DNA of 33,768 nucleotides from Patescibacteria group bacterium (GCA_018830465.1 JAHJSI010000048.1:1-33768); one strand, 5' to 3'. Shown: positions 8,465 to 11,752, counted from the first letter of the stretch. The notes: generated from the letters alone by a model not told the origin. Numbers and translations are program-made.

Positions 8465-8499
8465 GAGGCATCCAGAAAATCGGATGCCTTTTTCTTTTT
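8465..8499 (+). terminator. intrinsic terminator after the 8141 gene
   Basis: Stem GGCATCC (8467-8473) / GGATGCC (8482-8488), 8-nt loop, followed by TTTTTCTTTTT. The T-run abuts the mfd stop codon (8498-8500). Confidence 0.75.
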
Positions 8500-10936
8500 A
8501 CAATTGCTTTACGCATATTTCCAGTTTTTTCATCCAATCAGAACCAAGGTCTTTTTTTGGCACTTTTATTTTTTCTGTTCCATACTGCCAATGCGGACAT
8601 TTGTCCAGAATTTTAGCAAATATTCTTGGCTCAATCGGCTTTAAGGTTTGCAGAATAATATATTGCTCTTGAGAAGCAGAAGATGTAAAAGCTGTATCAA
8701 TCGCGCTTATGCCAGCTTGCTTTCCAAGAATTTTAAGAGAGAAAATATAGAAAAGATTTTCAATCGGCTTTGGAAGCGCTCCATCTTTCTGGAGTTCATT
8801 TTTTGCGCGCGTGATCTCATCAATAGAATCAATCAAAGCCCATTCGTGATAAAGCTCAATTCGTTTTTGCTTGTCTTTCTCAAAGAATTTAGGAATCCTT
8901 GCTTCAATAGGCAAGTCAACAGAAATATCAGACAGCATTTCACTTGGCGCGCCTGATTTGATTTCTTCAACAGCATTATTCAGCAAGCGAAGATACAATC
9001 CTAATCCAATTGACTTCACATGCCCATGCTGGGCTTTTCCTAGAACATTTCCAACGCCTCGAATCTCCATATCAGCTTGGGCAATATCAAAACCTGCCCC
9101 AAGTTCTTTCGCGGCTTCTAAAGCTCGCAAGCGTTTTTCCGCTCCACCAGTTAATTTTTGCCTTCTGAAGAAAAAGTAAGCATATGCCTGCCTTGATCCT
9201 CTGCCGATTCTTCCGCGAATTTGATGCAATTGCGATAGCCCGAATTGAACAGCATTATCAACAATTAAAGTATTAACATTAGGAAGGTCAACTCCGTTTT
9301 CAATAATAGTTGAGCAAACAAGAACATCAATTTTTTGCTTGTCAAAATCATGCATTTGTTTAGCCATTTCCTGCTCTGGCATTTGTCCATGAAGCATTCC
9401 AATTTTTATTTTTGGCAATAAATCCTGAAGTTCCTGCTTTTTAAGGTGCATTGTCTCAACTTTATTGTAAAGATAATACACTTGTCCTTTGCGTTTTATT
9501 TCACCTTGAATCGCTTGGGCAATATGCTTTTGATTATAGGATTCTATAATTGTATTAATCGGCTTTCTTCCGCCGGGAGGAGTGGAAATTGTGGAAATAG
9601 CGCGCACTCCTGATACTGCCAAATGCAGAGTTCTGGGAATAGGCGTTGCTGTTAATGTGAGCACATGGGATTCAGAACGAAGTCTTTTTAACTGCTCTTT
9701 GTGGTTAACTCCAAATCTTTGCTCTTCATCAATAACAATAAGCCCTAGATTTTTGAATTTAACGTCTTCTGATAAAAGGCGATGAGTGCCGATAATAATA
9801 TCAATTTTGCCTTTTTTTATTTGATCAATTGTTTTTAACTGCTCTTGTTTTGATTGAAATCTTGAGAGCGCGGCTATGTTAATTGGAAGATTTTTTAATC
9901 TGTCAGTAAATGTGTCAATATGCTGCTGAGTAAGAATTGTGGTAGGGGACAGAACAGCAACCTGGAATCCTTCTAAAGCGACTTTAGCGGCAGCGCGGAT
10001 TGCTATTTCTGTTTTTCCAAAACCAACATCACCGCAAACTAGTCGGTCCATTGGGATTTCATCACTCAAATCATCACAAATTGTTTCAATAACTTTTTTT
10101 TGATCGTCTGTTTCAGTATAAGGGAAAGACTTAGCAAGATCTTGCTCAATTTTTTCAGCTCTTGGTATTGCGATTGCTTTTGAAAGCTGGCGTTTTGCCT
10201 GGGTATTAAGCAGTTCGCGCGCGTGATGCAAAGTTTCTATGCTTACTTTGCTTAAAGATTTGCCCCAGCCAGAAGAAGACAAGCGGTTCAACGTAGGGTT
10301 GGGATCGCCAATGTATTTTTCCATTTTCTCGGCAGATGTGACAGGCAAGAACAAGGCATCATTTTCCGCGTAGCATAGTTTAAAATATTCTCTTGAAATA
10401 TTGTCAATCTTTTGCTCGACCATTCCATCAAATTTCGCGATCCCATGATCAATATGAACAACATAATCTCCTGTTTGCAGATTCTTTATAAATGAGGTCA
10501 GTTTGTATTTTTGTTTTTGTTCGTCTTTGGACGCGAATAATTTTGTTAATTGATGAATGTTTGCCCGCGTAAAATTGATTTCCACATCAGGCGAAGAAGG
10601 GAACGGTTCAAAAATAATATATTTGATTGGCGTATTGCAATTATTCTGGACAGGCGGGCGATCAAGAGCTTCTTGTTTAGTTAAAATTATTAAGCGATTA
10701 TGGCTGTTTTTTGTTTTTAAATGCGTTATTAAATTTAATTTCGCAAATTCATCATCAACCAAAAATAAAATCCGCGATTTGATTTTATCGCTATGATCTA
10801 TTATTTTTTCAAGCAAAAATGCATGTATTACAGGATTTGTGGGGATTTTTACAACTATTTTTTGCTTAGAATTAAGTTTTTCCGCAATACGCTTAACATC
10901 CTCCGAAATATCCGGAGGAGCTTGTCTTTGCTCCAT
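8498..10936 (-). CDS. mfd: transcription-repair coupling factor Mfd, N-terminally short form
   Basis: 812-aa ORF. CarD-like RNAP-interaction motif GDYVVHIDHGIAKFDGM already at about residue 156. SF2 motifs: VCGDVGFGKTEIAIRAA, VIDEEQRFG, TATPIPRTL, QLHQIRGRIGRG. Confidence 0.9.
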   Translation of the reverse strand: MEQRQAPPDISEDVKRIAEKLNSKQKIVVKIPTNPVIHAFLLEKIIDHSDKIKSRILFLVDDEFAKLNLITHLKTKNSHNRLIILTKQEALDRPPVQNNCNTPIKYIIFEPFPSSPDVEINFTRANIHQLTKLFASKDEQKQKYKLTSFIKNLQTGDYVVHIDHGIAKFDGMVEQKIDNISREYFKLCYAENDALFLPVTSAEKMEKYIGDPNPTLNRLSSSGWGKSLSKVSIETLHHARELLNTQAKRQLSKAIAIPRAEKIEQDLAKSFPYTETDDQKKVIETICDDLSDEIPMDRLVCGDVGFGKTEIAIRAAAKVALEGFQVAVLSPTTILTQQHIDTFTDRLKNLPINIAALSRFQSKQEQLKTIDQIKKGKIDIIIGTHRLLSEDVKFKNLGLIVIDEEQRFGVNHKEQLKRLRSESHVLTLTATPIPRTLHLAVSGVRAISTISTPPGGRKPINTIIESYNQKHIAQAIQGEIKRKGQVYYLYNKVETMHLKKQELQDLLPKIKIGMLHGQMPEQEMAKQMHDFDKQKIDVLVCSTIIENGVDLPNVNTLIVDNAVQFGLSQLHQIRGRIGRGSRQAYAYFFFRRQKLTGGAEKRLRALEAAKELGAGFDIAQADMEIRGVGNVLGKAQHGHVKSIGLGLYLRLLNNAVEEIKSGAPSEMLSDISVDLPIEARIPKFFEKDKQKRIELYHEWALIDSIDEITRAKNELQKDGALPKPIENLFYIFSLKILGKQAGISAIDTAFTSSASQEQYIILQTLKPIEPRIFAKILDKCPHWQYGTEKIKVPKKDLGSDWMKKLEICVKQL

Positions 10937-10969
10937 AATTTAATTATATATTAGCGCAAATTCTGTGTA

Positions 10970-10999
10970 TTGACAAGTGTGATTAAGATGTGCTAAAAT
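10970..10999 (+). promoter_or_regulatory. strong + strand promoter pointing into the mfd-pth spacer
   Basis: TTGACA (10970-10975), 18-nt spacer ending TGc, TAAAAT (10994-10999). Both flanking genes are on the minus strand, so it can only drive the spacer transcript. Confidence 0.55.
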
Positions 11000-11008
11000 T
11001 TTCTACTA

Positions 11009-11166
11009 TTCTTCTTATTCATCTGCTTGTAGTCCGTCTTGCGCGGGAACCCCTCCTAACCTGCGACGGACATCAAGTCAGGATTAATTGTTTTTACGAT
11101 TAACCCTGCGCTACAAGCAGATGCATGAGAAGAACCATGTACCGCTCACTCCGCTCAAGTACAGGG
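11009..11166 (+). ncRNA. candidate structured small RNA of unknown class (alternative: MITE-like inverted-repeat element)
   Basis: A 24-nt arm (11009-11032) pairs with 11111-11134: 22 Watson-Crick pairs, 1 G-U and 1 mismatch. It encloses two hairpins, 11033-11070 and 11079-11108. A third hairpin at 11135-11166 has a loop carrying CCGCTCA twice. GC-richer than its surroundings. No ORF. Confidence 0.4.
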
Positions 11167-11194: not shown

Positions 11195-11752
11195 TTAGAT
11201 AGATATAGTTGTTTTCTGTATGCCAGATAGCCATTCATCTATAACCCCTGGAATTTTTTTCAGGGATTTTTTTATAATCTTTTCTCCATCCTTTGTTGGC
11301 GACTTTAGAATGTAGTCCTCAGAAGACACGCGCTGTTTGCCTGCTTTTTTTTCCGCAATGCCAATCTTCAATCGTGCCACGCTCTCTGCCCGTAGGGCTT
11401 TTAGCACTGACTGCATGCCTTGGTGTCCGCCTGATGAGCCATCTGGACGCAGGCGCAGTGTGCCTATCAGCAGATCAATATCATCATAAATAATCAAAAT
11501 ATCTTCTTTCTTGATTTTATAATATCTTGCAATCTTGCCAACGGCATCACCGGATTTATTCATAAAGGTCTGCGGTTTTGCAAGAATTACTTTTGTTTTT
11601 CCAATTTTTTCTTCCACAACAAGAGCATTGAATTTGTCATCTTGTTTAAAGCTCTTTTTGTCCGCAAGCATGTCAACAGCATGAAATCCAGTATTGTGGC
11701 GCTGTTTTTCGTGTTCTTCACCTGGGTTTCCTAATCCAATTATTAGTTTCAT
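11195..11752 (-). CDS. pth: peptidyl-tRNA hydrolase
   Basis: 185-aa ORF. N-terminus MKLIIGLGNPGEEHEKQRHNTGF, plus DDIDLLIGTLRLRPDGSSGGHQG. AAGGAGA lies 7 nt upstream of the ATG. Confidence 0.93.
   Translation of the reverse strand: MKLIIGLGNPGEEHEKQRHNTGFHAVDMLADKKSFKQDDKFNALVVEEKIGKTKVILAKPQTFMNKSGDAVGKIARYYKIKKEDILIIYDDIDLLIGTLRLRPDGSSGGHQGMQSVLKALRAESVARLKIGIAEKKAGKQRVSSEDYILKSPTKDGEKIIKKSLKKIPGVIDEWLSGIQKTTISI

Follow-up and report, generated by a model that had tools for sequence, protein, structure and literature searches.

The genomes of Patescibacteria (CPR) are tiny and leave hardly any DNA unused. What, in such a genome, is encoded by a spacer that holds no ORF and carries a strong promoter followed by a large predicted fold? 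We addressed this question for one locus in a stretch of 33,768 nucleotides from a Patescibacteria group bacterium (GCA_018830465.1 JAHJSI010000048.1:1-33768), referred to below as the window. A first-pass annotation of this DNA had described, on the + strand between two minus-strand genes, a promoter-equipped structured element, and had hesitated between an unknown sRNA and a MITE.

A promoter and a three-way junction in the pth-mfd spacer

The locus is flanked by two genes of the minus strand, an mfd-like helicase gene (8498-10936) and pth (11195-11752), the latter followed by der and a LytR-family gene. On the + strand, a sigma-70-type promoter occupies positions 10970-10999, with the -35 hexamer TTGACA at 10970-10975, an 18-nt spacer and the TG-extended -10 element TGcTAAAAT at 10991-10999; it lies exactly where it had been annotated and agrees with the consensus at 11 of 12 positions. 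From the geometry of this promoter, transcription is predicted to start at 11006-11008, about 7 nt past the -10. The mfd promoter is arranged back-to-back on the minus strand (10948-10976: TTGTCA at 10976-10971, a 17-nt spacer and TAATAT at 10953-10948), and the two -35 hexamers overlap. The mfd ATG is found at 10936, about 12 nt after the mfd -10, so that the mfd mRNA would be nearly leaderless and devoid of a Shine-Dalgarno (SD) sequence.

The core of the element (11009-11134) sits within the pth-mfd spacer and overlaps no ORF. Its + strand folds into a three-way junction of about 126 nt (the core of the RNA being about 130 nt), with a minimum free energy (MFE) of -64.6 kcal/mol against -38.4 +/- 4.1 kcal/mol in 200 dinucleotide shuffles (z = -6.4), none of which (0/200) was as stable. 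The 24-nt arms that had been noticed at 11009-11032 and 11111-11134 are present and 92% complementary, but the helix that they form is one pair longer than described, the 5' strand (11009-11033) pairing with 11110-11134. This closing helix encloses two hairpins, as had been claimed, which we located at 11036-11071 and 11079-11108. The first, arm 1, consists of a stem (11036-11039/11068-11071, then 11042-11047/11060-11065) topped by a 12-nt apical loop, AACCCCUCCUAA (11048-11059), which is unpaired in both the MFE and the consensus folds; within it, the heptamer CCCUCCU (11051-11057) contains the anti-Shine-Dalgarno core CCUCC. The junction strand J1/2 (11072-11078, the CAUCAAGUC region) leads to arm 2 (11079-11108), composed of a conserved AGG/CCU base and a variable, covarying upper hairpin. 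The impression of a GC-richer region was confirmed, the G+C content of the element being 0.45-0.47 and that of its flanks 0.25-0.37.

The 3' end of the transcript is less sharply delimited. A trailing hairpin with CCGCUCA twice in its loop (11142-11148 and 11151-11157) exists at 11135-11166, as reported, but it is not conserved, relatives having at this place a U-run or a separate terminator; as judged from this comparison, it is specific to the window's genome and lies outside the conserved family. Since no U-run follows the closing helix in the window, we considered as transcript end a terminator-like hairpin with a T-run at 11246-11275 (+), antisense within the last codons of pth; this hairpin may represent the 3' end, a chance match being conceivable. 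Among the 59 aligned homologs, 23 have a U-run within 25 nt of the closing helix, and others a separate terminator hairpin. In many relatives the U-run comes directly after the 3' strand of the closing helix, which implies that the helix doubles as an intrinsic terminator. We therefore place the gene at 11006-11135 on the + strand, with a possible extension to about 11170 or about 11275. In one genome of the same genus, an extra GC-rich, long palindromic hairpin that is absent from the window was observed between the RNA and pth (L006:1695-1760).

Base pairs, loop and promoter are conserved on the + strand

The promoter is a conserved feature of the locus. In all same-family homologs the RNA is preceded, on its own strand, by TTGACA(AG) and a TGnTAnnnT -10; for the back-to-back mfd promoter, a mirrored -10 box, TAGCGYA, is conserved in all of them as well. 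A promoter of the TTGACA / TGnTAnnnT type precedes 55 of the 59 homologs (score of at least 9 of 13, with TTGACA exact or near-exact).

The relatives' loci were then compared for covariation. Among 13 members of the window's family, 22 of the 45 predicted pairs show compensatory changes, distributed over the arm-1 and arm-2 stems and the outer closing helix; the arm-1 stem, for example, occurs as CGCGGG/CCUGCG, GUUGGG/CCUAAC and GCCGAG/CUUGGC. In an alignment of 30 sequences, 92.6% of the cells are standard pairs, against 40-49% when the partners are slid by 1-3 columns, changes on both sides are seen in 41 of 44 base pairs, and the covariation score reaches 0.80 against 0.11-0.17, a value attained by none of 500 shuffles (0/500). 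The structure computed by RNAalifold has compensatory changes in 38 of its 40 pairs; the closing helix (modelled helices 1 and 2) has them in 25 of 26 pairs and helix 7, in arm 2, in all seven (7/7). The strand on which selection acts can be read from the wobble pairs: two alignments contain 189 and 173 G·U pairs against 19 and 30 A·C/C·A cells, respectively, and this excess indicates that the + strand transcript is the selected molecule. The window itself scores 113 bits with the covariance model in the sense orientation and 37 bits in the antisense orientation. The sRNA reading is thus borne out by a conserved + strand promoter and terminators, extensive compensatory changes and strand-specific G·U pairs, and we regard the existence of a real, conserved RNA gene on the + strand as almost certain.

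Across the family, the closing helix is formed by the two ends of the RNA and measures 25-30 bp. It is invariant inside the window's family (CUGCUUGUAG/CUACAAGCAG) and covaries freely elsewhere. The apical loop of arm 1 is 9-12 nt long, most commonly ACCCCUCCUAA or AUCCCUCCUAU, and it contains CCCUCCU in 59 of 59 aligned homologs drawn from several classes; the heptamer is invariant while the stem beneath it covaries. Near the junction, arm 1 carries an internal loop, GGY-GAA ... AGUA-RCC, which a strict motif match recovers in 22 of the 47 homologs that do not belong to the window's family. This GAA/AGUA loop looks like a loop-E or S-turn module, by its sequence; in the window's family it is replaced by plain pairs. 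The junction strand reads AAGU(U)A, to which J1/2 of the window corresponds, and in arm 2 the AAGG/CCUU base is conserved, whereas the top is variable and covaries.

A single-copy locus of Patescibacteria

The genome from which the window derives is 624 kb long and 95% complete, and the element is present there as a single copy. As a side observation in the same genome, a 390-aa ORF at C39:12993-14163 (-) appears to be a fusion of a dUTPase-like N-terminal part with a thymidylate-kinase-like part (P-loop GIDGAGKTT). BLAST searches found one copy in each of 13 same-family genomes (13/13). A first covariance model (R1) detected the RNA in 77 of 401 genomes of the class, at one locus in each. A second model (R2), trained on 30 diverse members, detected it in 46 of 401 genomes drawn from across the phylum and covering several other classes, again at a single locus per genome. 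Since scoring was limited to 8 prefilter candidates per genome, both counts are minimum values. Outside the window's family, the RNA was present in about 12-19% of the sampled genomes, these figures being again lower bounds from filtered searches. The annotated sRNA therefore stands as a + strand RNA gene but not as a local one, since its family spans several classes of a phylum.

We also scanned 185,579 species, one genome per species, with exact patterns. The pattern of the window's family matched records named Candidatus Komeilibacteria and Parcubacteria group, and that of the wider family matched Doudnabacteria, Saccharibacteria, Torokbacteria, Nealsonbacteria, Buchananbacteria and 'Patescibacteria group'. 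All 30 wider-family pattern loci score 51-91 bits with R2; these confirmed matches come from CPR or from unclassified or generically labelled MAGs, and none is convincingly non-CPR. Conversely, R2 did not recognise the eight pattern matches whose source lies clearly outside the CPR (Magnetococcales, an Alphaproteobacteria MAG, a Gammaproteobacteria MAG (L129), Nitrososphaerales, Chloroflexota, Lachnospiraceae, Eubacteriales and Fibrobacteraceae). One confirmed match (L176) is labelled 'uncultured Gammaproteobacteria', a label also borne by same-family CPR MAGs. Indeed, the RNA-carrying MAGs of loci L105, L111-L115 and L176 group with Komeilibacteria and are named 'uncultured Gammaproteobacteria bacterium'; these labels are probably wrong. 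As far as tested, the RNA family is specific to Patescibacteria.

In the window and its 13 relatives, the RNA is divergent from mfd at 14 of 14 loci compared, and the gene downstream is pth wherever it could be identified, except at loci L012 and L017. The pth-mfd/dprA spacers of relatives carry the RNA at the same syntenic site, next to pth and opposite mfd or dprA, and other classes likewise show the arrangement lytR-der-pth-[RNA]-(mfd)-dprA.

These results bear directly on the second reading of the first-pass annotation, a MITE or another mobile element bounded by 24-bp terminal inverted repeats. Although a 126-bp unit with 24-nt inverted arms, richer in G+C than its flanks, is what such an element would look like, the arms occur at one locus in the 624-kb genome, relatives across the phylum have one syntenic copy each, and the arms covary as an RNA helix. 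The arms are not flanked by a target-site duplication either, no direct repeat being found beside them (...ttctacta before the first arm, ccatgtac... after the second), and the element has its own conserved promoter. We consider the probability of a mobile element to be negligible, and this reading was dropped.

No match to known RNA families

When the whole window was compared with Rfam 15 at gathering thresholds, no family matched, in agreement with the first-pass annotation, which had recognised no known RNA. At E <= 10, the locus gave chance matches only (PsrR1, nuoG and a plastid motif); the PsrR1 match, on the 11246-11275 hairpin, scores 24 bits where the gathering score is 42. The same search of 21 homolog loci (13 + 8; E <= 10 / E <= 1) yielded nothing at the RNA, and literature searches returned no description of a CPR ncRNA of this kind. 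The family thus appears to be new, in that no Rfam 15 model matches it and no mention of it was found in the literature searches.

Could the RNA nevertheless be a highly divergent member of a universal family, that is SRP/4.5S RNA, 6S RNA or 5S rRNA? In size, promoter strength, pairing of its two ends and breadth of conservation it resembles housekeeping RNAs, SRP RNA is undetectable in these genomes, and the GAAGUUAAG string together with a CCC..CC..AAC loop recalls 5S rRNA. SRP RNA was the first to be suspected, ffs being undetectable: like 4.5S RNA, the new RNA is a small RNA of the abundant type with paired ends, in genomes without a recognisable SRP RNA. Unlike it, however, it shows neither the conserved helix-8 motifs nor the GNRA tetraloop or symmetric loop of SRP RNA, and RF00169 and RF01854 match neither at the locus (E <= 10) nor elsewhere in the genomes. 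Moreover, the protein partners are missing. The SRP54-type GTPase domain (PF00448) is absent from 40 carrier or relative genomes, and in the window's genome Ffh/FtsY motif searches and tblastn with E. coli Ffh (used as a probe only) were negative, while SmpB was found by the same method at E = 1e-24 as a positive control. A weak tblastn match of the Ffh query in the window is topoisomerase I, and a 442-aa 'SRP54-like' match near the RNA in one Saccharibacteria genome is Der/EngA. This agrees with published work, according to which Parcubacteria lack ffh and ffs and many CPR lack SRP subunits (PMC4508563, PMC8080830). Because these genomes lack Ffh and FtsY, the RNA is not SRP RNA.

The 5S candidate, considered for the GAAGUUAAG string and the loop resembling loop C of 5S rRNA, was rejected because a canonical 5S gene lies elsewhere in 24 of 31 genomes, among them the window's own, where it adjoins the 23S gene (C60:3746-3862, 85 bits); RF00001 gives no match at the locus. 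As for 6S RNA, RF00013 does not match at E <= 10 in the window or at the 21 homolog loci, and the RNA folds around a three-way junction with a single long helix; it has no 6S-type central bubble with a long helix on either side. With no score at the locus from any Rfam model even at E <= 10, we judge a divergent universal RNA to be very improbable. ARAGORN found no tRNA and no tmRNA in the window. It also found no tmRNA in the 95%-complete genome, in which SmpB is clearly encoded (C29:590-1036); the tmRNA has either diverged or falls in a part of the genome that the assembly lacks.

A candidate anti-Shine-Dalgarno loop

The invariant heptamer suggests how the RNA could act. We propose that the exposed CCCUCCU loop, in which the anti-SD core CCUCC is extended by flanking pyrimidines, acts in trans by pairing with G-rich SD-type sequences (AGGAGGG) of mRNAs, and that it would thereby reduce or adjust the translation or stability of these mRNAs. 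In this model, a stable scaffold is provided by the long helix together with the junction, the long helix serving also as terminator. Taken by itself, this mechanism is a serious candidate that we place somewhat short of probable; the RNA gene and the pairing mechanism, blended into one account, form the best overall explanation, to which we give an about even chance of being right.

C-rich-loop sRNAs with the same mode of action are known from other phyla, as RsaE/RoxS in Firmicutes and 6C in Actinobacteria. Those with CCUCC-type hairpin loops are a known class that includes cuckoo/CcsR (alpha-r14/r35), with CCUCCUCCC loops (PMC4615179). What defines this functional class, an unpaired CCUCC-type motif in the loop of an independently transcribed small RNA, is also predicted for the new RNA. 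It shares with cuckoo/CcsR, RsaE/RoxS and 6C an independent gene that has a promoter and a terminator of its own and no partner gene beside it, and an unpaired CCUCC pyrimidine motif, complementary to ribosome-binding sites, in a hairpin loop. It differs from them in having one motif loop rather than two or more, a 25-30-bp closing helix with a three-way junction and, in most lineages, the GAA/AGUA internal loop, and it has no similarity to them in sequence or by Rfam model, none of the cuckoo/CcsR, RsaE and 6C models scoring at the locus. Furthermore, these sRNAs do not extend beyond an order or class and often occur in several copies, whereas the new RNA is spread over several classes with fixed synteny.

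In the window's genome, SDs are of the GGAGG type, for instance UAAGGAG before pth. In two lineages (L075, L083), an ORF downstream on the same strand carries UAGGAGGG, the exact 8-nt complement of the loop. This would be a weak hint of SD pairing, weak because every SD complements CCUCC, so that such a match is not discriminating by itself. Longer complements of the loop (AGGAGGGG) occur rarely in the window's genome, and none lies at a start codon; a unique extended target was sought there and none was found, and the GGAGGG-type SDs precede only 9 ORFs, with no obvious pattern. Separately, we observed that the RNA is followed on the same strand by an ORF for a small membrane protein or lipoprotein (60-166 aa) at loci L075, L083, L087, L079, L054 and L055, and that UAGGAGGG is the SD of this ORF at L075 and L083; at loci of the latter type, the RNA might act in cis as a leader.

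Alternative roles of the RNA

Base-pairing sRNAs are usually confined to a genus or a family. The phylum-wide conservation, fixed synteny and internal-loop motif of the new RNA are atypical of them and better fit a protein-bound housekeeping RNA. Accordingly, the C-rich loop, the loop-E/S-turn-like module and the junction could be protein-recognition sites of a housekeeping ribonucleoprotein (RNP), in which the RNA would be a scaffold or a decoy, for a KH- or S1-type RNA-binding protein or for a factor that normally reads the 3' tail of 16S rRNA. A family that is phylum-wide, single-copy and strongly promoted, with an invariant 7-nt single-stranded motif and the GAA...AGUARC internal loop in 22 of the 47 homologs outside the window's family, speaks for this role, as does the resemblance of the loop to the 16S 3' end (16S of the window's genome, GGAACACCUCCU; loop, GGAACCCCUCCU): the two share the CCUCC core and pyrimidine flanks and agree at 12 of 13 bases (GGAACACCUCCUU in 16S, GGAACCCCUCCUA in the loop), the motif being presented here in a closed hairpin loop and not at a free 3' end. 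Yet no partner protein emerged from the analysis and no RNA-binding gene is consistently adjacent, the neighbours being pth, der, mfd or dprA, and lytR; the window's own family lacks the S-turn-like module; and the loop flanks do not co-vary with variants of the 16S tail. We view an RNP scaffold or decoy as the foremost competitor of SD pairing, a real but rather unlikely option, and we are doubtful of its more specific form, an unrecognised CPR housekeeping RNA serving as an RNP subunit in translation initiation or in ribosome or mRNA handling through its 16S-tail-like CCCUCCU loop. Mimicry of the 16S tail beyond the core was rejected, the 12/13 identity not being tracked in relatives with different tails; since the loop flanks do not follow the tail variants, only the CCCUCCU core is under selection. 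Such variants occur within the family: the 16S 3' tail is GGAACACCUCCUUUCU in the window's genome (C6:27942-28000), GGAUCACCUCCUUUCU in most Patescibacteria and GGAACAACUCCUUUCU in genus g3 (L168, L169), where the anti-SD core CCUCC has become ACUCC.

The fixed position of the locus across classes, beside the 3' end of pth and opposite mfd or dprA, raises another possibility, that of an action in cis, either as an antisense to read-through transcripts of pth-mfd/dprA or as a conserved (bidirectional) terminator or insulator hairpin. The closing helix followed by a U-run works as a terminator in many species, the -35 of the RNA overlaps that of the mfd promoter, and the minus strand of the element also folds stably (-66 kcal/mol). 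However, a three-way junction, two covarying arms and an invariant 7-nt loop would all be superfluous in a terminator, and the counts of G·U against A·C pairs show selection on the + strand RNA. In most species the RNA ends before the stop codon of pth, and hence does not overlap the coding sequence; in the window, an antisense overlap would arise only if pth were read through or if the RNA extended to the hairpin at 11246-11275, inside pth. Finally, pth is not the neighbour in some lineages (L012, L017). A role confined to cis is therefore improbable, and pairing of the loop with SD sequences in trans remains our preferred mechanism.

Significance for Patescibacteria

Several widespread structured RNAs are orphans of unclear role, among them the raiA motif, OLE, HEARO and ROOL/GOLLD. 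The new RNA resembles these in having been found by comparative analysis, with strong covariation over a wide range, and in having no known biochemical role; unlike them, it is much smaller, at about 130 nt, and restricted to Patescibacteria, and their Rfam models are unrelated to it. According to a 2022 preprint, the cultured model TM7x had no validated small RNAs (bioRxiv 10.1101/2022.03.25.485537). With the covariance model, a spacer that recurs as 'empty' in thousands of CPR MAGs can now be annotated, and the RNA offers a handle for genetics in the few cultivable Saccharibacteria. The hypothesis that we put forward is that of an anti-SD mimic that sequesters ribosome-binding sites or titrates a factor binding the 16S tail. 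If the RNA were an RNP subunit, it would join the short list of widely conserved bacterial RNAs; if it were a housekeeping RNA, it would be a near-universal new RNA for about a quarter of bacterial diversity, in genomes without SRP. One genomic address and one invariant 7-nt loop have been kept from Komeilibacteria to Saccharibacteria. Together with the structural constraint and the strong promoter, this conservation suggests that the RNA has an important, probably translation-related, role in organisms that have discarded the signal recognition particle.
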